DNA of 18,977 bases from Microcoleaceae cyanobacterium (GTDB lineage Bacteria > Cyanobacteriota > Cyanobacteriia > Cyanobacteriales > Microcoleaceae). The DNA lies in the NCBI GenBank assembly GCA_049647275.1, contig JBARXI010000674.1, positions 1-18,977 of the forward strand, given 5' to 3'. The notes beneath the pieces are model-generated. The model did no database searches. It had not been told where the DNA came from and saw only the letters and a list, made by a program, of their open reading frames with translations. Shown piece after piece: positions 1 to 17,190 of this stretch. The translations under genes were made by a program, and so were the position numbers. Every line of letters starts with the position of its first letter. The stretch's first letter is position 1.

Positions 1-250
1 GCATAATATCGAGTCGCAGTTTCCTTTGAGATTCGAGGCGATAAAATTTCTGCCTATCGAGAATATTTAGGCAGCAATGGTAAATCAAATTAGATGAAAT
101 AAAAGTTTGTTTCAGTTGTTCATAATATTAAGTCGTGGTTTCCTTTGATATTTGAGGCGATAAAATTTCTGCCTATCGAGAATATTTAGGCAGCAATGGT
201 AAATTAAATTAGATGAAATAAAAATTATTTCAGCCGTGCATAATTAAGTT
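1..250. repeat. Tandem direct repeat, 119-bp period: two full units (1-119, 120-238) and about 12 bp of a third. Each unit carries a 7-bp-stem hairpin.
   Basis: Unit 1 (gcataatatcgag...) recurs from 120/121 with 119-bp spacing. The central stretch gaggcgataaaatttctgcctatcgagaatatttaggcagcaatggtaaat is identical in both units. Hairpins CTGCCTA/TAGGCAG lie at 50-74 and 169-193. gcataat restarts at 238, then similarity decays. The array touches the window edge, so it may extend upstream. Confidence 0.85.
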
Positions 251-424
251 ATAAGAGTCTTAATTAAGAGATAGTATTTTTAAAATAAACGAGGTACACA
301 AGTTTGAAATTGTCAGGAATACCGAAGTACAGAATAGGCGAAAATATTGTATTTCATTAATATAACAACCGCTATATACTGACTATATAAATAGCTAAAT
401 TATTGAATATTGGTAGATACTGAA

Positions 425-3400
425 ATGTTTACTATTAACTCATACAATATTTTTTCTCTGAGAACTCCAGGAGGCGATCGCTTCACAGAATTTGTTGATG
501 CGTTGATTAGAGCTGAGGCATATTCTCAAGGTATCCCAATGTCAGGAATTTCAACTAATCTACGAACTAATCTAGGGGATGGGGGTGTTGATAGTGAAGT
601 TCGTCAAGCTATTCCCACCAGTCAAACTGGATGGTTTAGCGTACCCACCTGCTGGCAGTATAAGGCAACTCAATTTAAAGCAATTTCTGACTCGGAACTT
701 CTGAAAGAAGTTAACAACTATTATGCAAAAGAATTAATTCAAAAAAATTATGGTTATCGGTTTTGTATATGTGATGATTTAACTCCAACTAAGAAAAGTA
801 AATGGGAAAAAATTCTTAATGATGAAGTTAAAAAGCTCAATTCTTTAGCAGAAGCTCAGGTAGTTACTGCTTCTGATTTAGCTGCATGGGCTAGTCAATA
901 TCCAGCAGTTATCGTTCGATTTTTTAAACCAGAACTTTTAAGTTGTCTTACTTTTGAAGATTGGGGAGAAAGAATAACCGAATTAACTCCTAAATTTGTA
1001 GAAATAAAAAGTTGGGATTCTGTTGAACAGAGAATTATTGAACATACTAACTTTAACCTTCCTTGCCACAAAGTTATTTTGCCAATTCAAGGTGAATCAG
1101 GAGTTGGAAAAACCAGGTTAGTCTATGAATCATTATTAACTGTTGGGGCAATTTCATTAGTGGTCTATACGAAAGATAATCGAGCCTTAAAAATTGCCTA
1201 TTCATTAGTTCGGGATACCTCAACAAAAGCGATATTAATTGCAGATGAATGTTTGCCAGAAACTCAAGAAAAACTCAAATATATTCTGAACAAAATTAAA
1301 GACAGAGTACGGGTTATTTGTATTGATAATTCTGGAGAAGGTATTTCTTTTACAGAACAGGTTTGGCTAACTCGGATACCAGAAAATGAGCTTGATAAAA
1401 TATTAGAGCAAAATTTTGAAACAGTTTCTCCACAACGTCGTCTTACTTATGTCAGACTATCAAAAGGTTTTGTAAGATTAGCAGCAGACCTCTGTACTCA
1501 AGATGCTAATATTATTGCTCAAGGAAACTTCGGTTCGGTTTTGCAGGATGTGAGAAGTTATCTCAAACTAAGGTTGAATTATGACGATCAAAAGCTCAGG
1601 ATAATAGAAGCAATTTCATTATTTCAAAAAGTAGGATATCGTGACAATGTTAAAGCAGAACTCGAAGAACTGTGTCAAATTACAAGTCTGAAATTAGATA
1701 AAGAAAACCTTCTAGAAATAGCGAGCCGTTTGAAAGACATACCAGGTTTTTTTGCATTTGCCGGACGTTATATTTATATCACCCCAGAAATTATTGCTCA
1801 AGTGACATTTGAGGGAGCATGGCAGAGATGGATAGAATATGACCCCGATGCTTTTCTTTCACAAATTCCAGTATCTTTAATTGAGTCATTTCTCTATAGT
1901 GTTTCTACCAGAGCTTCCCAAGAAAATCGTAGTATTGTCGCTCGATTTTTTCGGAATTTGATTGCTGAATTTAAACCGAATGATTTAACTGATTTTGCCA
2001 AGGTTAACCGTCTAGTTATTTTAGTAAAAACTGACCCTGAATATTATTTTCCAAGGCTGGCACAAATAATTGATAAATCTTCAGAAGCAGAGCTGTTGAA
2101 AGTATCTGGTGGTTATTGGGAAAATTGGGGAACTAGAAGATTATTAGTATGGCTAGTAGAAAGTATAGCTGCATTTCCCGAATTTTTCTTTGATGCAGAG
2201 TCAATACTTTGGAAGTTAGCATTAGCAGAAACAGAACCTAATTTAGCTAATAATGCTACAAGAATTTGGCAACAACTATTTCAAATTTTAAATTCGGGAA
2301 CAGCAACTCCATTTATCACTAGAATTAAGAGACTAGAGGAAAGGTTATTTACTGAAAATAAAGAGGAAACATCTCTAGCGCTAGAAGGCTTAAGTAATAG
2401 TCTAAAAATAAACATAGTATGGAGTGTTGTTGATTTATCTGTATTTGCTGGTCGAATTGTACCTAAAAATTGGCAACCTGAAAATTCCTCAGAACTAAAA
2501 GAATGTCTTGACTTAGCAGTGAATCTTTTAATTAAAGTTGCCAGTGCCGATAATTCTTTTCTTCGTCTTAGTGCACTGCAAATAGCAATACAGCATCTCA
2601 GGACTTTGCTACTAAATAATTATCTAGACAAAATTAAGACAGTTTTCATACCAGAAAAATTACCAGAAGATATTCTGTTGTCTTTAATCAATAAATTAGA
2701 ATATTTTGTCCGATTCAATCCTAATTTAAATGTAGATATTCAGCAATGGCTTCAAAATTTAACTCCTAATAATTTACATGGCAGGTTAATTCAGATATTA
2801 AGTCAATCTCCTTGGTCTCATTCACGAATAGAAAATCAGGAATCTTGGTATCAAGAAATCGATGAAATTGCTCAACAGTTTTGCCAAAATCCAGAACTTC
2901 TTATATCGGAGATGAAATGGCTTTGCTCCCCTCAAGCAATTAGTTCTTGGGCATTAGGTAATGCACTAGGAAAATACGATACTCAAGCAGTTTGTTTAAA
3001 AGCAATTATGAATGGAGCTACAAACACATCGGCTACTGATTTAGCAAGAGAATATATCAGCAGTTTAGTAATTAATTATCCACGACATATAGCCTTAGTT
3101 AATAATTGGATTGACAAACTAGAAACCCAAGTACCAAAAATTGCCTATGAACTATTTATGGCAGGGGGTCATGCGACTAAAGCAATCGAAAGAACTTTAA
3201 ACCTAATTGATAAAGCAGTCTTGCCATTAGCATATCTTGATAGATTTAGTCTGATGATTGCTAAACATCAACTTTCAGCAGAAGACTTTGGTGAAATTCT
3301 TAAACCCTTGATTCAGTCTGTAAAAGAAGAGAAAAATATATCTGCAATTGAGACAACAATTAGATTAGTTTCCCATCAGCTTAGGATTGAAGAAACTGAA

Positions 3401-4102
3401 AAATCATCCCAATTTTTAGCAAAAACTACCATTCAGAATTTGATTTGGGAGTTATTAGAAGCTACTACAGAAGAAACTGGTAGAGAATATGAATCTTGGG
3501 CAGAGATTATCATAAAAATGGCAAAATATAATATTGAAAAAGTTGCTCGAATCACTAGCTCTGCACTGGTAACTAAAAATGATGAGCATAAATTTAGAGC
3601 CGAGGAAATATTAATAGACTTAGCAAAAGATTATCCAGAAATAGTAATAGAACAAATAGGAGAAATCATTTTATATGAACAACAAGGATGGCATTTTTTG
3701 ATTGCACAATACCCCTTCCTAATTCAACCTCTTCCACTTGATACTGTGAAAAAATGGCTTAGTTTAGTTGGTGTGGAGGGAGCTCGAAAAATTGCCGAAC
3801 AACTTCCTATTCCTTATATTAATCAAGACGGTAAAGCTGTCGTTCCCCCTCTTACAGAATTTGTTTTCTCAGAATTTAAAGATGATGATGAAACCTTCCA
3901 AAAATTTTGTTACAGCTCACATAACCTGCAGGTTTATTCTGGAGATATAAAAGCTCACAAAAAGAAGGAAGCTGAAGATGCTAAAAAATTTCTCAACCAT
4001 CCCCTGCGAAGAATAAAGGAATGGGCATTATATGAAATTGATAACTCTAAACAAGAAGCTGAATATTGGCATCAGATTGATAATGAAACTAGCATCCCCT
4101 AA
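425..4102 (+). CDS. Large multidomain protein: N-terminal Mrr/PD-(D/E)xK-like nuclease motif, P-loop NTPase, and a long C-terminal region inferred to be alpha-helical repeats (Avs/STAND-like candidate defence NTPase)
   Basis: Uninterrupted ORF of 1230 codons from TTG 410; the first ATG is at 425. GDGGVD (575-592) followed by WQYK (653-664) resembles the Mrr-type D...QxK nuclease core. Walker A GESGVGKT is at 1091-1114 and Walker B-like AILIADEC at 1229-1252. The remaining roughly 900 aa show no motif I can recognise, so the helical-repeat call is inference. Confidence 0.65.
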   Translation: MFTINSYNIFSLRTPGGDRFTEFVDALIRAEAYSQGIPMSGISTNLRTNLGDGGVDSEVRQAIPTSQTGWFSVPTCWQYKATQFKAISDSELLKEVNNYYAKELIQKNYGYRFCICDDLTPTKKSKWEKILNDEVKKLNSLAEAQVVTASDLAAWASQYPAVIVRFFKPELLSCLTFEDWGERITELTPKFVEIKSWDSVEQRIIEHTNFNLPCHKVILPIQGESGVGKTRLVYESLLTVGAISLVVYTKDNRALKIAYSLVRDTSTKAILIADECLPETQEKLKYILNKIKDRVRVICIDNSGEGISFTEQVWLTRIPENELDKILEQNFETVSPQRRLTYVRLSKGFVRLAADLCTQDANIIAQGNFGSVLQDVRSYLKLRLNYDDQKLRIIEAISLFQKVGYRDNVKAELEELCQITSLKLDKENLLEIASRLKDIPGFFAFAGRYIYITPEIIAQVTFEGAWQRWIEYDPDAFLSQIPVSLIESFLYSVSTRASQENRSIVARFFRNLIAEFKPNDLTDFAKVNRLVILVKTDPEYYFPRLAQIIDKSSEAELLKVSGGYWENWGTRRLLVWLVESIAAFPEFFFDAESILWKLALAETEPNLANNATRIWQQLFQILNSGTATPFITRIKRLEERLFTENKEETSLALEGLSNSLKINIVWSVVDLSVFAGRIVPKNWQPENSSELKECLDLAVNLLIKVASADNSFLRLSALQIAIQHLRTLLLNNYLDKIKTVFIPEKLPEDILLSLINKLEYFVRFNPNLNVDIQQWLQNLTPNNLHGRLIQILSQSPWSHSRIENQESWYQEIDEIAQQFCQNPELLISEMKWLCSPQAISSWALGNALGKYDTQAVCLKAIMNGATNTSATDLAREYISSLVINYPRHIALVNNWIDKLETQVPKIAYELFMAGGHATKAIERTLNLIDKAVLPLAYLDRFSLMIAKHQLSAEDFGEILKPLIQSVKEEKNISAIETTIRLVSHQLRIEETEKSSQFLAKTTIQNLIWELLEATTEETGREYESWAEIIIKMAKYNIEKVARITSSALVTKNDEHKFRAEEILIDLAKDYPEIVIEQIGEIILYEQQGWHFLIAQYPFLIQPLPLDTVKKWLSLVGVEGARKIAEQLPIPYINQDGKAVVPPLTEFVFSEFKDDDETFQKFCYSSHNLQVYSGDIKAHKKKEAEDAKKFLNHPLRRIKEWALYEIDNSKQEAEYWHQIDNETSIP

Positions 4103-4182: not shown

Positions 4183-4329
4183 ATATTATGTCCGGATAAT
4201 TAGGTATAAAAAAACTTTCTGTTTCCTATTCTCCTTGATCTTTATTTTTCCTCCCTGTTCCCTGTTCCCTGTTCCCTGTTCCCTATTACCTATTACCGTT
4301 TATTACAACTATTCAACCGGACATGATAT
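4183..4329. repeat. Hairpin element with 13-bp terminal inverted repeats enclosing an STRR-like heptamer array (CCCTGTT x4 plus degenerate CCCTATT/ACCTATT)
   Basis: atattatgtccgg (4183-4195) matches the reverse complement of ccggacatgatat (4317-4329) at 12/13 positions. Four perfect CCCTGTT heptamers span 4253-4280, with degenerate units to about 4301. The element lies between the convergent ends of the NTPase and VOC genes. Confidence 0.8.
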
Positions 4330-4334
4330 TACAT

Positions 4335-5351
4335 TCACTTACTAACTAAATTCCAAAAATATCCATCAGGAGCAACAAAAGAAAAACTCTGTTCCCCAAA
4401 CTCATTACTAACAATATCCGTCACCTTTTCAGCAACAGAATTTTTAACCCGATGAAAATAAAAATCTATATCCCCCACTCGATAAGTATACAAAGACATT
4501 CCCAAACAACCAGGATGCGACTTATCAAAACAACCCTCTAACTTAACCGCTTCAGGAAACCGAATAATATACATCCTACCCGACCGCGCCAACTGCCAAT
4601 TTACAGACGAACGCGGGTCATCAAAAGCAGTAACAGTAAACCTTTCCCCAGGTTGCAAATCAAAAATTTGCCTAGCCGCCTCCGAACTCTCATAACTCGT
4701 CTCATCATCATCCCGCGACCGTAACAACCCCAACACATCCTCATAAAACCGCAACGTTTCCTTACTATCATCCTGTACCACCATCCCTGCATGAGTCACC
4801 TGACTACTTTTAAAAGCAGATGCTTGATTAATATTGCCGTAGTCAGGCACATTATAATTAAAACGTTCAAACAACACCTGGCGCGTCAAGGGTTGCAACA
4901 ACATCATTTCCCGCACTCCCACCGCCGGATCGATAAATGGGCGACCCTTATCCATTTTATAAATGATCTCCCATTGGGGAGCAGTGTATTTAATAGGTAA
5001 ACCCCCCACTTTCGCATCTTCAGCATGATTATGAATATTCAAAACATCAGTCGTTAACATCGTCGCCCAACGGTTACCCTTCACTTTCATTGAACTCATT
5101 TGCAAGCCTTCATTAGTAGGGTTTTCCCAAACCATCAGCCGAATCAAACCATGATCGGAATTTTGGTGGTAAAGTCGAATAGACCGTAAACTGGAATTTA
5201 CCCCATATAAATTGTTCACTGTAGGGGCGGTTAATTCTCCTATTTGCCCGATGCGATAGCCAAACTGTTCCCAATATTGAATTATTAATAAGGGTTCGGT
5301 AATGCCAATACAGACTTCATAGATACCTTCGATAGTAGGATTTTGATTCAT
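4335..5351 (-). CDS. Two-domain VOC (glyoxalase/bleomycin-resistance/dioxygenase) superfamily protein
   Basis: Clean 338-aa ORF with an ATG start. Segments such as THAGMVVQDDSKETLRFYEDVLGLL and IEGIYEVCIGITEP...YWEQFGY resemble the beta-alpha-beta-beta-beta modules of VOC proteins. The family call is from memory of motif shape only. Confidence 0.55.
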   Translation of the reverse strand: MNQNPTIEGIYEVCIGITEPLLIIQYWEQFGYRIGQIGELTAPTVNNLYGVNSSLRSIRLYHQNSDHGLIRLMVWENPTNEGLQMSSMKVKGNRWATMLTTDVLNIHNHAEDAKVGGLPIKYTAPQWEIIYKMDKGRPFIDPAVGVREMMLLQPLTRQVLFERFNYNVPDYGNINQASAFKSSQVTHAGMVVQDDSKETLRFYEDVLGLLRSRDDDETSYESSEAARQIFDLQPGERFTVTAFDDPRSSVNWQLARSGRMYIIRFPEAVKLEGCFDKSHPGCLGMSLYTYRVGDIDFYFHRVKNSVAEKVTDIVSNEFGEQSFSFVAPDGYFWNLVSK

Positions 5352-5532: not shown

Positions 5533-6027
5533 GTGACAACAGTAAAAAATATGGTATGTTTTGTTAAGCTAGAAATTATTGAATCGGCTAAAGAACTGAA
5601 AACAATACTAGGTCAACAAACAGAATGGAAGCAAAAACAAAGGATACAAGCTTTATACTGGCTCAAAATAGGAGCGGCTGAAACTATCGAACATATATCA
5701 GTATTATTAGGATGTCATCGTACTACTGTATCAAGATGGTTTACTATCTATAGAAAAGTTGGTATAGAAGGTTTATTGGAGAAAAAAAAAATTTCAGGTA
5801 GACCTAGAAAAATATCAGCTATAGCTGAGGAAAAGCTCAAATTTGAATTACAACAAATGGAAGGTTTTAGTAGTTATAGTGAAGTACAAATATGGTTGAA
5901 AGCAATGTGGGATATTGATTTACCATACTCAACAGTACATAGGTATGTTCGTTATGGTTTAAAAGTTAAATTAAAAGTGCAACCTCCCTTAAGAAGTAAA
6001 CAAAAACTAACGGATGTTGAATATTAA
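5533..6027 (+). CDS. IS630-family transposase N-terminal HTH fragment; the DDE catalytic domain is missing
   Basis: 164-aa ORF with a GTG start. Paired HTH region ...ISVLLGCHRTTVSRWFTIYRKVGIEGLLEKKKISGRPRKIS... and ...YSTVHRYVRYGLKVKLKVQPP.. are typical of IS630/Tc1-type OrfA. The ORF stops where the DDE domain should begin, and nothing DDE-like is readable downstream in any frame. It contains an A10 run at 5782-5791. Confidence 0.65.
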   Translation: MTTVKNMVCFVKLEIIESAKELKTILGQQTEWKQKQRIQALYWLKIGAAETIEHISVLLGCHRTTVSRWFTIYRKVGIEGLLEKKKISGRPRKISAIAEEKLKFELQQMEGFSSYSEVQIWLKAMWDIDLPYSTVHRYVRYGLKVKLKVQPPLRSKQKLTDVEY

Positions 6028-6908: not shown

Positions 6909-7036
6909 TATAGCAATTCCCAAAAAGCGTGAGGTACAAAATTTTAGGTTTTAGGGAACAGGGAACACCGGAGCTGGGAACAGGGAATAAAAAGACCAAA
7001 AGATAACTGTACCTCACGACCTTGGGAAACGCTATA
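6909..7036 (+). mobile_element. MITE family C, copy 1 (128 bp): roughly 30-bp TIRs enclosing GGGAACA-type heptamer repeats
   Basis: tatagcaattcccaaaaagcgtgaggtaca (left) pairs with tgtacctcacgaccttgggaaacgctata (right). The interior is gggaacagggaacaccggagctgggaacagggaat. A second copy lies at 16357-16484. Confidence 0.8.
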
Positions 7037-9919: not shown

Positions 9920-10290
9920 TTATTTCAATTGATTAACAAGAGAAATAATCATTCTGCTTTCTTCTTTTCGTTCATCTATGATTAATTCCACGTCATTAAA
10001 CGTACAAAACGTACATAACTTTATTTTTGTTGATAGAATGAAGATGTGTCTCTAATTCATTTACACCAAGCCCGAGCAATATTTAAAAATTGAGCATAAT
10101 CTCCCGCGGATATTCTGGCATCACCCTCGGCAATATTTGCGGGAAGAGAAACCGAAGCTCTTGTTATTTGTTGAATCATGCCATAAGTCTCTCCTTTTGG
10201 AAACTTTTTAGTTAGGGAATAATACTTTAAAGCAATTATCATTCCTTTTTCCCACATTTTTAAATCTTTAAAGTCTCTAATTTCATACAT
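9920..10290 (-). pseudogene. Four-helix-bundle protein (23S rRNA intervening-sequence protein / Avd-like family), disrupted by frameshifts
   Basis: The 77-aa ORF (10057-10290), FKDLKMWEKG...LTKKFPKGETYGMIQQITRASVSLPANIAEGDAR...FLNIARA, matches the family N-terminal half and then stops. The expected continuation (VNELETHLHSINKNK, then DVELIIDERKEESRMIISLVNQLK*) is readable in the other two frames down to a stop at 9920-9922. One extra nucleotide near 10060 explains the first shift. Confidence 0.6.
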
Positions 10291-11613: not shown

Positions 11614-13089
11614 TTAGGAACTTAGTTGTTCACCATCTGTTCCTTTAAATTTGCGAGTGCGTTTAGATTTAGTCTTATGTAGGGGCGAATGGCCATTCGC
11701 CCCTACAACAGAAAACTCAGTAGTATCAAAAAGGTTAAGTTGAGTAGGAGTTATTAATTGATTAGTTGATTGTTTTACTACTTTGACTTTCTGCTTGACT
11801 AATTCACCAAAACTGTAGCTAAAACCATCAGACTTATGGATATGACGACAATATTTATGGTTAACATCAAAGGTTTGAGTTGATGTTTTGAGTTTAAAGC
11901 TTCCAGTTCTTCTAGTAGCAATTCTGCCAGTATGAGTGCCTGCATATTTGCCTTGAGGAATATCAGCTTTAACAATATCGCCAGTCATAAAACTATAGAA
12001 TGATTTTTGTCTGAGTTTTGGCTGGCCACGAGGAAACCCATATTTATCTGAATTGACCATTTGTCTGCTTCCATGCCCCATAGCTTTAATTAACAAAGGC
12101 TGATCACCTTGAACGTTCAAACTATCAGGAGTAGAAGTTCCGACACAAGCTGCATCTGTCCAATGAGATTTACTAATACCTAAGCGTTTTCGGTTATATT
12201 TGGTTAAACCACCAGAGCCTAATTCGACAGGCAAACCACTAGATTCTAATACTTCCTTAAGCTTCCAACGAGTGGCATTTACCGCAGCAGCATTAGCTAA
12301 TGGTTGTTTCCTCTGTTTGTCTATTAATGCTAATAATTTAGGTCGATCGGACAAAAAGTCTTCAGGTAATTGATGATCCTTTTTCTGGTTACAAGGTACA
12401 CAACTTAAAACTAAGTTAGAAACTCTGTTGCTACCACCTTTAGATTTTGGATGAAAGTGGTCAAGGTTAAATGGTACTTCTCTAGCTCCACAATAAACAC
12501 AAGTTCTGTTGAACTTTTCTAGAAGATACTGTCTAACTTCATAACCTGCTAGTTCGCCCTGCTGATATTCAGTGCCACTAATTTCTCGATTAACCATTTT
12601 CTGAGTATCAAAGCGGACTAATTCTTGACTAATAGCTGATACTGGAGCTAATCTACATAGTTTCTTAACCCAAGATTCTATGTTAAATACTCTGGACATT
12701 AAGCTAGGAGGCAACCAACCTTTAGGATGCTTACGATTGAGAAACCTTGGCTTACGATAACGAGTTTTGCGGTTTCTACGAGAACTTCTCAAAGTTCTAC
12801 GTTTAGTTAAAGCTTCCGAGATTTGAAAACCTCGATGTTCTAATTCTGCACACCAAACAATGTTAGTGTCTGATAACAAAGCTAATCCTGTGAAGCGACT
12901 TCCAGGGTCTAATTTTAGTCTTAATTCCTTTACTTCATTTGCTGATTCCTCCTTCAAAATAATGGTAAATGGATATCTACGAAACACTGCTGCATAGCCT
13001 AGCTTTAATAACTTTCTGGCTACAGCCGGATGTACTGGATTACATAGTTTTCTATTTGTATCCAGTACAAAGACGGAATTTTTATTCAT
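11614..13089 (-). CDS. iscB: IscB, OMEGA-system RNA-guided nuclease (PLMP-like N-domain, split RuvC, Arg-rich bridge helix, HNH)
   Basis: 491 aa. N-terminus SVFVLDTNRKLCNPVHPAVARKLLKLGYAAVFRRYPFTIIL. RuvC-I LKLDPGSRFTGLAL (D61, codon 12907-12909). Bridge helix RRTLRSSRRNRKTRYRKPRF. RuvC-II SQELVRFDTQ followed by EYQQGEL. HNH CVYCG..LDHFHPKSKGGSNRVSNLVLSCVPCNQKK (about 12379-12501). RuvC-III HWTDAACVG. Conserved SDGFSYSF lies near the C-terminus. No internal stops. Confidence 0.9.
   Translation of the reverse strand: MNKNSVFVLDTNRKLCNPVHPAVARKLLKLGYAAVFRRYPFTIILKEESANEVKELRLKLDPGSRFTGLALLSDTNIVWCAELEHRGFQISEALTKRRTLRSSRRNRKTRYRKPRFLNRKHPKGWLPPSLMSRVFNIESWVKKLCRLAPVSAISQELVRFDTQKMVNREISGTEYQQGELAGYEVRQYLLEKFNRTCVYCGAREVPFNLDHFHPKSKGGSNRVSNLVLSCVPCNQKKDHQLPEDFLSDRPKLLALIDKQRKQPLANAAAVNATRWKLKEVLESSGLPVELGSGGLTKYNRKRLGISKSHWTDAACVGTSTPDSLNVQGDQPLLIKAMGHGSRQMVNSDKYGFPRGQPKLRQKSFYSFMTGDIVKADIPQGKYAGTHTGRIATRRTGSFKLKTSTQTFDVNHKYCRHIHKSDGFSYSFGELVKQKVKVVKQSTNQLITPTQLNLFDTTEFSVVGANGHSPLHKTKSKRTRKFKGTDGEQLSS
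11678..11707. repeat. 30-bp perfect palindrome tgtaggggcgaatggccattcgcccctaca inside the 3' end of the iscB ORF
   Basis: Read directly; it is its own reverse complement. It is translated as VVGANGHSPLH in the ORF tail. Confidence 0.9.
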
Positions 13090-13345
13090 TGAAAAACTCC
13101 TATTGCTAGGGTAAAAGTCACATAAGCTATGTTATTAGTCGGTACTTTTCAAATAGCACTGTCTTACCCCTCGTAGGACCGTTTAACTATCTGATTCTAG
13201 AGCTTGAAACTTGTGAGGTATTTCAAGGTAGGACTTTTAACTCTTACTAATAACGTAGTCACTTAAGACTTAGCCTGGTTAGCATATCTAAATCAACGAT
13301 GCACGAAGCTCCGTCTCTTTAGAGCGGGGTGCTGACTAACTGTTG
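13090..13345 (-). ncRNA. Candidate omega RNA scaffold of the IscB element (boundaries approximate)
   Basis: In described IscB loci the omega RNA is encoded immediately 5' of iscB on the same strand and overlaps its start. Here a 279-bp ORF-free gap separates the plsX stop from the iscB ATG. It contains complementary 9-mers (13131-13139 gttattagt / 13246-13254 actaataac). It also contains a 7-bp stem (13203-13209 / 13221-13227) and a repeated GTAGGAC(N)TTTAACT motif (13173-13188, 13228-13242). No covariance model was run. Confidence 0.45.
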
Positions 13346-14658: not shown

Positions 14659-15267
14659 CTATCTATTTAATTGATTAGCTGCCTCTTGTAATTTTTCTAC
14701 GATTTTTCGATTTTTAGGACTACGGCTGCCATAGAGTCTAGCACTAAAAATTTTGATTATTTCTAAAATATCTGTTGCTAAATCTTCTTCTTCTGTTGAC
14801 TCAGAAGCATGATTAATAATTACAATTTCTGTACCAAAAATCTCACAAATTGTAAATATTAGTTCGGAACCGAATCTTAATAAACGGTCTTTATTAGTTA
14901 ATACCAAACGTTCTACTTTTTCAGAGCAGATCATTTTAATTAACCTGACTAGCCCTCGTTTTCTGTAATTTATTCCTGAACCTAAATCCCGGATAATTTC
15001 TACTAACCAACCATGATTATTACAGTAGGCTTCTAATACCATTATTTGTCTTTCTAAATCAGCTTTTTGCTCGGAACTAGAGATACAGGCATAAGCAATG
15101 GTTTTACGCTCTCCAGACCTAAGTCCGAGAAGAGTAGCAACGTCATATCGGCGATGTCCATTCTTGGTTCTTTCGGATTGGAGCTTGCCTTCACGTTCCC
15201 ATCTTCTTAGGGTACTTTCTGCTACCCCAAGTAGTTCAGCAGCCCTTCCTATGGAAATTTTGCTCAT
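14659..15267 (-). CDS. tnpA: IS607-family serine recombinase transposase TnpA (MerR-type HTH plus resolvase catalytic domain)
   Basis: 202 aa with IGRAAELLGVAESTLRRWEREGKL..NGHRRY (MerR-like HTH), IAYACISSSEQKADLERQ (catalytic Ser region) and KDRLLRFG...FSARLYGSRS. It appears intact, but no tnpB follows it. Confidence 0.85.
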   Translation of the reverse strand: MSKISIGRAAELLGVAESTLRRWEREGKLQSERTKNGHRRYDVATLLGLRSGERKTIAYACISSSEQKADLERQIMVLEAYCNNHGWLVEIIRDLGSGINYRKRGLVRLIKMICSEKVERLVLTNKDRLLRFGSELIFTICEIFGTEIVIINHASESTEEEDLATDILEIIKIFSARLYGSRSPKNRKIVEKLQEAANQLNR

Positions 15268-16356: not shown

Positions 16357-16484
16357 TATAACAATTCCCAAAAAGCGGGAGGTACAAGATGATAGTTTGT
16401 AGGAAACAGGAAAAAGGGAACAGGAAAAAAGGAATAGAGAATAAAAAAGACAACTGTACCTCAGGCTTCCTGAGAAACGCTATA
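16357..16484 (+). mobile_element. MITE family C, copy 2 (128 bp), inserted into the tnpB remnant
   Basis: tataacaattcccaaaaagcgggaggtaca ... tgtacctcaggcttcctgagaaacgctata. The interior is a degenerate heptamer array (ggaaacaggaaaaagggaacaggaaaaaaggaat). It has the same length and architecture as 6909-7036. Confidence 0.8.
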
Positions 16485-17190
16485 AACTTCTCAAGTTTTA
16501 TCGTCAAGCTGAAGATAAATTAAGTACATTACAGCCAAATAAATAAGTTCAAACTAAAAATCATCAAGCTAGACAAGGAAGACAATAGCAATTTAAGGAA
16601 TTAGGGTAATTATTAGATAACGTAGATGTCATATTTGTCGAAGATGTGCAAATAGTAAATATCTTAAAACCTCATCAGACTCAGCTCAAGAAAAATAGCA
16701 ACTATTTGCCCAATAATAAATCTACTAAATCTGGATTAAATAAATTATTTGCTAATGCTGCAATAGCAGGATTATTAAATGAAATGCTGACTGTGAAAGC
16801 TGGTAATAAAATAGTTGTAGATTTCATAAGGCTTCCTGAGAAACTCTATAAACTTCCCAAGTTTTATCGTCAAGCTGAAAAGAAATTAAGTATATTACAG
16901 CCAAATAAATAAGTTCAAACTAAAAATCATCAAGCTAGACAAGGAAGACAATAGTAATTTAAGGGATTAGGGTAATTATTAGATAACGCAGATTTCATAT
17001 TTGTCGAAGATGTGCAAATGGCAAATATCTCAAAACTTCATTAGACTCAGCTCAAGAAAAATAGCAACTATTTGCCGATTGATTATTCTGCTAAATCTGG
17101 ATGAAATAAATCATTTGCTGATGCTGAAATTGCAGGATTATTAAATGAAATGCTAACTGTGAAAACTGGTAATAAAATAGTTGAAATTAA
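16464..17190 (+). repeat. Tandem duplication, 366-bp period (copy 1 16464-16829, copy 2 16830 to about 17190), within the tnpB remnant
   Basis: ggcttcctgagaaac.ctataaactt starts at 16464 and again at 16830. The following roughly 350 bp align colinearly by eye with scattered substitutions. Both copies begin with the last 21 bp or so of MITE C. Confidence 0.85.

Follow-up and report, generated by a model that had tools for sequence, protein, structure and literature searches.

The closest described relatives of the gene analysed here belong to Avs8, the present name of the PD-lambda-4 system discovered by Vassallo et al. 2022. Its protein Avs8A combines an Mrr-family nuclease, a P-loop nucleoside triphosphatase (NTPase) of the STAND class (signal transduction ATPases with numerous domains) and a repeat-like C-terminal domain (bioRxiv 10.1101/2025.07.02.662641). 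According to the same work, Avs8A binds the monomeric HK97-fold major capsid protein (MCP), with a Kd of 127 nM for lambda gpE and of 14 nM for Bas21, and then degrades linear double-stranded DNA (dsDNA) in a Mg2+- and ATP-dependent manner; defence is lost in mutants of the nuclease active site, and the second gene, Avs8B, is dispensable (bioRxiv 10.1101/2025.07.02.662641). A systematic survey of STAND proteins counted Avs8 as one of three MCP-sensing families of antiviral STAND (Avs) proteins and reported degenerate Walker motifs in some members of Avs8 (KpAvs8) (bioRxiv 10.64898/2026.01.04.697583), and a DefenseFinder-based survey reported PD-Lambda-4 in Proteobacteria only. The DNA considered here, called the window, is a stretch of 18,977 nucleotides of a Microcoleaceae cyanobacterium (GenBank assembly GCA_049647275.1, contig JBARXI010000674.1). 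Near its beginning lies a gene that probably encodes a stand-alone Avs receptor of the Avs8/PD-lambda-4A type, with a mechanism proposed by homology.

The open reading frame (ORF) at 410..4102 of the forward strand is intact and forms one very long frame in the window. Translation most likely starts at ATG 425 rather than at TTG 410, because the homologues begin at a methionine equivalent to ATG 425 and because the product read from this codon (1225 aa) is 100% identical to the NCBI entry 'MAG: hypothetical protein WBA93_27040 [Microcoleaceae cyanobacterium]'; residues are numbered from ATG 425 throughout. A chance origin is excluded by the presence of a 1225-codon ORF in DNA of 34% G+C and by end-to-end conservation in hundreds of homologues. 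The base composition of the gene (34.3% G+C, vs 35.6% for the window and 36-43% for housekeeping neighbours) is only weakly atypical, which decides nothing. Scans for promoters and terminators in its surroundings gave nothing better than shuffled sequence, and no notable inverted repeat was found flanking it. Pfam and NCBIfam scans of the window protein returned nothing significant, AAA_16 reaching only an E-value of 0.18.

An earlier note, made from the letters of the DNA alone, had described this frame as a candidate single-gene defence protein of Avs type, with a nuclease, an NTPase and a large sensor, on the strength of the motifs GDGGVD, WQYK, GESGVGKT and AILIADEC. All four motifs are present in the translation, Walker B lies about 45 residues past Walker A as the note had said, and the Avs-type reading is borne out by the homology with Avs8A, by a predicted structure that matches Avs3, by the patchy and non-syntenic occurrence of the homologues and by their defence-island and plasmid contexts, all of which are presented below. 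Among 74 homologues, the residues D52, G54, D56, Q78, K80, G226, G228, K229, R231, D274, R294 and R296 are invariant, as are about 20 further positions spread as far as W1200. When the comparison of N-termini is widened to include the sister family described below, D52, G54 and Q78 are still invariant, and the conservation of D56 and K80 is 90% or more. The window copy keeps every conserved position, so that nothing suggests its decay. Furthermore, D52, D56, Q78 and K80 align with D52, D56, Q79 and K81 of the Avs8A-like family, in which an invariant DGGEDG is the counterpart of GDGGVD and FQxK is aligned with WQYK.

The central part of the protein has the characteristics of a STAND NTPase, a class reportedly defined by Leipe et al. 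in 2004. Indeed, the protein has (i) a P-loop nucleotide-binding domain, (ii) a Walker B motif with two acidic residues, (iii) a predicted helical domain followed by a predicted winged-helix domain and (iv) an effector and a repeat sensor, with the exception that the proline of the GxP motif is replaced by valine. The hhGRExE motif was not found ahead of Walker A. Weak but recurrent Pfam matches to STAND families were obtained for the 29 window-clade homologues that make up alignment A1, namely AAA_16 (26/29), nSTAND_NTPase5 (9 members, best E-value 1.4e-5), nSTAND3 (5 members) and NB-ARC (3 members); nSTAND6 was also matched. The remaining ~770-900 aa match no Pfam repeat family, in keeping with the roughly 900 aa without recognisable motifs mentioned in the note, and are predicted to form an all-alpha solenoid.

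Two AlphaFold2 models were built with the 74-sequence alignment, one of residues 1-200 and one of residues 1-1200. The first, with a predicted local distance difference test (pLDDT) score of 90.4, displays the elements H18-34, E42-44, E57-59, E75-80, H89-106 and E110-115 (H, helix; E, strand), which correspond to the alpha-beta-beta-beta-alpha-beta core of restriction-endonuclease-like nucleases; the second strand is immediately preceded by D52 and D56, and the third contains Q78-x-K80. The top Foldseek matches of the N-terminal domain, in both lists consulted, mostly have the restriction-endonuclease fold, with probabilities up to 0.96. They include, among structures of the Protein Data Bank (PDB), the Can2 nuclease (probability 0.96), MspJI, an Avs4 chain, Mus81/XPF and a Holliday-junction resolvase, and, among viral models, two phage 'restriction endonucleases' (probability 0.96), an Mrr-domain protein (rank 18, template modelling (TM) score 0.43), RPB5 and ERCC4. 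In the second model (pLDDT 89.2, predicted TM-score 0.67), the P-loop domain comprises beta218-223, alpha229-240, beta246-250, beta269-274, beta295-301 and beta313-315, the helical domain spans H320-398, and the winged helix is composed of H411-418, H426-436, E444-446 and E449-451. From residue 455 to the end of the model, an uninterrupted all-alpha solenoid is predicted, consisting of helices only, with pLDDT mostly above 85. Avs3 in complex with terminase ranks first among the PDB matches of the full model (E-value 8.7e-8), followed by SAMD9 (2e-6) and CED-4 (8.6e-5); the remaining PDB matches are HEAT/ARM solenoids, e.g. CAND1, karyopherins and condensin HEAT subunits. The check by AlphaFold and Foldseek that the note had proposed thus gives a predicted PD-(D/E)xK fold, a STAND arrangement of nucleotide-binding, helical and winged-helix domains, and a HEAT-like solenoid; a missing nuclease fold at the N-terminus, which the note had named as counting against its reading, was not the outcome. 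Searches of the sequences of solved structures with the full-length and N-terminal profiles found no relatives.

The relationship with Avs8 was established from several sequence comparisons. PADLOC, which the note had also proposed to run, matched the window protein to its model PD-Lambda-4_A (E-value 1.1e-17, 61 bits), residues 19-728 being aligned with profile positions 18-748 of 1283. The same model was matched by 29/29 members of A1 (best E-value 3.2e-29). A database search found 201 homologues, of which those listed are mostly 1215-1260 aa long and colinear over 98-100% of the query, with identities descending from 59% to 35%. Remoter relatives, at 21-23% identity, were found by tblastn against plasmids, and two of them are matched end to end by PD-Lambda-4_A: a Thalassobaculum plasmid protein (1266 aa; E-value 5.8e-111) and a protein of the Pseudanabaena plasmid pPg_05 (1250 aa; L010, 5947-9696; E-value 6.7e-78). 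Judged by this end-to-end match, the Pseudanabaena protein belongs to the Avs8A-like sister family. A profile comparison by hhalign of A1 with A4, an alignment of 27 members of the sister family, gave a probability of 100% and an E-value of 5.9e-90 over 1196 aligned columns (1-1237 vs 7-1265). When hhalign was rerun locally, the mean posterior confidence was 7.0-8.7 (on a 0-9 scale) in every region, and in the sensor (aa 455-1225) the means were 7.0-7.9 in all three thirds against the Avs8A-like family. Because of these 1196 columns and of the high confidence in every region, the window clade is, as far as profile alignments tell, a sister clade homologous to the PD-lambda-4A family along its whole length and not in the NTPase alone. 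The tblastn against plasmids gave no E. coli record, and none is named among the 120 matches listed in the homologue search.

Compared with Avs8A of E. coli ECOR07 (WP_000963924.1), the window protein falls in the same length class (~1220-1280 aa) and has the same order of domains, i.e. a nuclease with D..D...QxK, a STAND NTPase with Walker A and B, a helical and a winged-helix domain and an all-alpha sensor; their homology, traced via the PADLOC model and the sister family, extends from end to end. The window gene stands alone, and a single gene suffices for Avs8. No Avs8B-like neighbour was detected in the window, which includes only 409 bp upstream, the 232-bp downstream gap having no ORF of at least 50 aa and the neighbouring genes giving no PD-Lambda-4 match with PADLOC; since Avs8B is dispensable for defence, its absence is no argument against function. 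Differences from Avs8 lie in this missing neighbour, in the helical-domain motif discussed below and in the distribution of the window clade, which occurs chiefly in Cyanobacteria, Planctomycetota, Acidobacteriota, Firmicutes and archaea rather than in Proteobacteria; unlike in KpAvs8, the Walker motifs are intact. The protein also shares with Avs3 and Avs4 (AVAST; PDB 8dgc and 8dgf) the tripartite arrangement of effector, STAND NTPase and helical sensor, in addition to the structural matches given above. However, it has no detectable sequence similarity to them, and the global TM-scores are low (0.16), as is expected for flexible multidomain proteins; moreover, the Avs3 sensor recognises terminase and the Avs4 sensor portal. 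The earlier note had made no assignment to a named family and had considered a diverged or undescribed variant: divergence is confirmed, the protein being in a sister clade of Avs8, but the protein can be assigned to a named family and its architecture is consequently not an undescribed one.

The homologues are widely scattered. When one genome from each of 185,579 species was scanned, at least 83 loci were found in more than 15 phyla and in archaea, a number that is a lower bound as the scan relies on two peptide patterns. About ten of these loci are cyanobacterial and many belong to Planctomycetota and Acidobacteriota; further ones were found in Firmicutes, Chloroflexota, Verrucomicrobiota, Actinomycetota, WOR-3 and Myxococcota, and the archaeal ones in Methanothrix, Micrarchaeota and Bathyarchaeia. 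An exhaustive phmmer search against 1.84 billion representatives gave 545 proteins at E <= 1e-30 and 2273 at E <= 1e-3, and tblastn against a phage collection found no phage-encoded copy. When all ORFs within 3 kb of 92 loci were clustered, no ORF family occurred in more than 6/92 loci and none was common to the window; consequently, the homologues have neither synteny nor a conserved partner gene. The gene is thus not a universal, syntenic housekeeping gene of cyanobacteria, an outcome that the note had named as one that would count against its reading.

Among eight close-family loci inspected, four have a defence-island or plasmid context and one is prophage-like. In Carboxydothermus, the gene is surrounded by BrxC/D ATPases, a PLD nuclease, a Cas3-like helicase, toxin-antitoxin pairs and a Wadjet JetABCD operon; in Peribacillus, it shares an integrase-bounded island, adjoining groESL, with genes for a methyltransferase and a helicase; in an archaeal genome assigned to Methanothrix by its match to L068, it adjoins an EVE/NmeDI restriction gene, Fic and DUF433; and in Cyanobacterium sp. 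Dongsha4, a 20.6-kb plasmid carries it together with a type I restriction subunit, methyltransferases, integrases and an NTase/HEPN pair. It stands beside a prophage-like block in Trichocoleus, after a CHAT protease and a Gp49/HTH pair in Scytonema, and after a patatin gene, among housekeeping genes, in a Chloroflexota metagenome-assembled genome (MAG). The Pseudanabaena copy of the sister family adjoins phosphorothioation-associated genes and an integrase. The gene family is therefore accessory, rare and patchy, and is linked to defence or mobile contexts in several loci. Two further distant relatives are cyanobacterial: loci of Nostoc sp. FACHB-280 (L085, 2955-5456) and Nostocales LEGE 12452 (L090, 6001-7371) match the window protein at 24% identity, and the window clade and the Avs8A-like sister family may coexist in this phylum. 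Separately, in-frame stop codons were seen at the 5' end of the homologue in a Bryobacteraceae MAG (L062, 6001-6600) and in a cyanobacterial MAG (L075, 6001-6600); these copies may be frameshifted, pseudogenised or the result of assembly errors.

By homology with Avs8, a mechanism can be proposed in which defence activity, trigger, oligomeric state and DNA substrate would all resemble those of the characterised proteins. In the resting state, the NTPase would keep the protein monomeric and its N-terminal nuclease inactive. During infection, the C-terminal alpha-solenoid would wrap around a freshly synthesised monomer of a conserved phage protein, most likely the HK97-fold MCP, and binding of this ligand would relieve autoinhibition. 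The binding or turnover of ATP at the Walker A/B site would then drive oligomerisation, probably into a tetramer; tetramerisation is what activates the nuclease of Avs3 and Avs4. Both of these form ligand-induced tetramers (bioRxiv 10.1101/2025.07.02.662641). The juxtaposed Mrr-like PD-(D/E)xK domains (D52, D56, Q78 and K80) would finally degrade dsDNA indiscriminately, and the infection would abort.

Several observations weigh against this interpretation, and a first group concerns the nuclease and the NTPase. Foldseek with the N-terminal domain gave no match at E <= 0.001, all nuclease matches having E-values above 0.01. None of the nuclease hidden Markov models (HMMs) tried, Mrr_cat included, was significant, and Mrr_cat is absent from the Pfam families reported at E<=1 for the 29 and 27 members of the two alignments (first 25 families by member count). 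EcoKMrr carries GDGGIDG...VQAK, which resembles GDGGVD...WQYK, and hhalign of the N-terminal profiles with EcoKMrr was not significant (E-value 0.077, 12 columns, limited to the DGG(V/I)D motif). The helical-domain motif corresponding to the STAND GxP is GFP in the sister family and GFV in the window clade. The Mrr-like character that the earlier note had given to the N-terminus is thus upheld by motif and predicted fold and has no significant match to the Mrr_cat HMM or the EcoKMrr profile; the label rests on the motif, the predicted fold and the published assignment of Avs8A.

This resemblance to Mrr raises the question of whether the protein is instead an NTP-dependent type IV modification-dependent restriction enzyme, in which an Mrr-like nuclease would be driven by a DNA-acting NTPase, in the manner of McrBC or SauUSI, without protein sensing. 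Like EcoKMrr and the Mrr_cat (PF04471) type IV enzymes, it has GDGG(I/V)D followed by QxK and a predicted alpha-beta-beta-beta-alpha-beta fold, the nuclease is fused to an NTPase, and homologues occur beside restriction-modification genes. However, the two motifs are separated by 20 residues in the window protein vs 14 in EcoKMrr, the N-terminal winged-helix reader of DNA modification is lacking, with no reader domain in the Pfam scans or in the model, and the nuclease domain serves as the effector within a STAND protein instead of standing alone as a restriction enzyme. Together with the STAND-typical helical and winged-helix domains after the NTPase, the structural matches to Avs3, SAMD9 and CED-4 and not to translocases or helicases, the 770-aa solenoid that would be left unexplained and the activation of the homologous Avs8A by a protein ligand, these differences make such an enzyme very improbable.

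A second group of adverse observations concerns the locus. The window is not an obvious defence island, its neighbourhood being largely housekeeping genes and mobile-element debris, and upstream only 409 bp of sequence are visible. A STAND protein without a role in defence, i.e. a signalling or regulatory ATPase or a scaffold with a degenerate nuclease-like domain, would agree with this housekeeping neighbourhood, with the lack of a significant nuclease HMM and with the fact that many STAND clades are not immune-related. It is nevertheless hardly to be expected, given that D52, D56, Q78 and K80 vary little or not at all between phyla, that the distribution is rare, patchy and non-syntenic, that homologues are embedded in defence islands and plasmids, and that the protein is homologous to an experimentally validated defence nuclease.

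The third group concerns the distance from Avs8 itself. The comparison with Avs8A runs via the PADLOC model and the sister family defined with it, and not via E. coli Avs8A. The profile-level identity of A1 and A4 is 18%, i.e. remote, and the PADLOC alignment of the window protein ends at profile position 748/1283. Sister-family proteins score 260-370 bits on PD-Lambda-4_A, vs 61 for the window protein; because of this low score and partial coverage, as opposed to full coverage in the sister family, the window protein is, in terms of the PADLOC model, homologous yet outside the core family. In view of the remote similarity and of the alignment stopping at 748, the trigger specificity of the window clade may differ from that of Avs8A. 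An 18% identity to the Avs8A-like family makes it a serious alternative that the Avs architecture and the nuclease output are the same and that the sensor reads a conserved protein of phages or archaeal viruses other than the HK97-fold MCP, which would define a separate Avs family by trigger. In support of this possibility, which is the less likely one, the PADLOC model aligns only as far as residue 728, and the hosts of the window clade include archaea and phyla whose viruses are poorly known. The proteins sensed by Avs families can differ greatly even where the NTPases are related, and a single Avs may respond to several triggers (10.64898/2026.01.04.697583). On the other hand, the sensors are colinear and confidently aligned over their whole length, including the C-terminal helix region. 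HK97-fold capsids are, as far as is known, universal in tailed phages and tailed archaeal viruses. Avs8 also tolerates MCPs of less than 15% identity, as it reads the fold (bioRxiv 10.1101/2025.07.02.662641). It is conceivable, with a similarly modest likelihood, that the window clade is a distinct Avs family whose remodelled solenoid reads another viral protein, or cyanophage or archaeal-virus capsids that escape the characterised Avs proteins.

With an Avs8-type receptor as the preferred interpretation, an unannotated cyanobacterial protein of 1225 aa and several hundred 50%-identity clusters are now tied to a receptor that is understood mechanistically. Because the DefenseFinder-based survey confined PD-Lambda-4 to Proteobacteria and the window clade lies elsewhere, the Avs8-type architecture reaches beyond that phylum, to cyanobacteria, several other phyla and archaea. 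A testable hypothesis for the sensing of cyanophages follows, with capsid protein as input and DNA degradation as output. No new principle of immunity is revealed.

Table 1. Positions of the gene, of its domains and motifs and of the other features of the window (aa, residues of the window protein).
Feature	Position	Strand	Evidence or remark
Complete gene, probable Avs8-like STAND nuclease	425..4102	+	1225 codons + stop; ATG 425 favoured over TTG 410
N-terminal effector domain, aa 1-175, predicted restriction-endonuclease-like fold (PD-(D/E)xK, Mrr-type D...QxK)	425..949	+	model
GDGGVD, aa 51-56, putative metal-binding acidic D52 and D56, just before beta2	575..592	+	conservation
WQYK, aa 77-80, QxK of nuclease core, in beta3	653..664	+	conservation
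P-loop nucleotide-binding domain, aa 213-318	1061..1378	+	predicted model and weak Pfam matches
Walker A GESGVGKT, aa 223-230	1091..1114	+	G226, G228, K229 invariant
Walker B AILIADEC, aa 269-276, acidic pair D274 and E275	1229..1252	+	D274 invariant, E275 >=90%
Helical domain, aa 319-405 (GFV 348-350), and winged-helix domain, aa 406-454	1379..1786	+	predicted model
C-terminal sensor, aa 455-1225, all-alpha HEAT/ARM/TPR-like solenoid, homologous to Avs8A sensor	1787..4099	+	model and hhalign
Direct repeat of 119 bp	1-244		2.1 copies, 88% matches; contig edge, just upstream of gene
STRR-type heptamer TCCCTGT	4252-4284		4.7 copies; array region 4252-4297, then CCTATTA; intergenic
VOC/glyoxalase neighbour, 338 aa, convergent	4335-5351	-	PF00903, E-value 4.4e-4, C-terminal half only
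IS630 transposase, N-terminal fragment	5533-6027		NF033545, E-value 7.6e-17, profile 11-122 of 299
STRR-type array AGGGAAC (reverse-complement-like)	6953-6987		4.9 copies; intergenic
ORF of 77 aa between fabD and fabH	10057-10290	-	PF05635 '23S rRNA-intervening sequence protein', E-value 1e-21, profile 1-67 of 106
IscB, 491-aa ORF	11614-13089	-	NF040563, 427 bits (cut-off 175); Pfam RRXRR 2.3e-69 and HNH
Complete HEARO RNA, directly upstream of IscB	13111-13336	-	RF02033, 132 bits vs gathering score 83
IS607-family serine-recombinase transposase, upstream of plsX	14659-15267	-	NF033518, 199 bits
STRR-type array AGGAAAC	16401-16434		3.9 copies; intergenic
Tandem duplication of 366 bp	16463-17183		2.0 copies, 92% matches; ~1.2 kb beyond IS607 transposase

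Downstream of the gene come the convergent VOC/glyoxalase gene and the IS630 fragment, followed by fabD, fabH and plsX, among which mobile elements are interspersed. The VOC/glyoxalase neighbour has no NCBIfam or PADLOC match and is present beside none of the other 91 loci. Of the surrounding elements that the earlier note had listed as signs of an accessory region, the tandem repeat array upstream and the IS630 fragment nearby are both present; downstream, the heptamer array of the short tandemly repeated repetitive (STRR) type was recovered, and no notable hairpin was found there. Each copy of the 119-bp repeat contains a short palindrome, CTGCCTA...TAGGCAG. In another public assembly with the same gene (L002), the sequence stops 231 bp upstream of the start, within this repeat, which suggests that it is a dispersed repeat that breaks assemblies. 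A CRISPR array was considered for the same repeat and rejected on account of the period of 119 bp and of the number of copies, about two.

Farther along, an apparently intact IscB/omega-RNA (OMEGA) unit lies between plsX and fabH (11614-13336, reverse strand). The 366-bp duplication contains an 88-aa ORF (16646-16912) that, because of a weak likeness to the C-terminus of Cas12f/TnpB (PADLOC E-value 6e-5), looks like a decayed TnpB, and the 77-aa ORF with the PF05635 match may be truncated.

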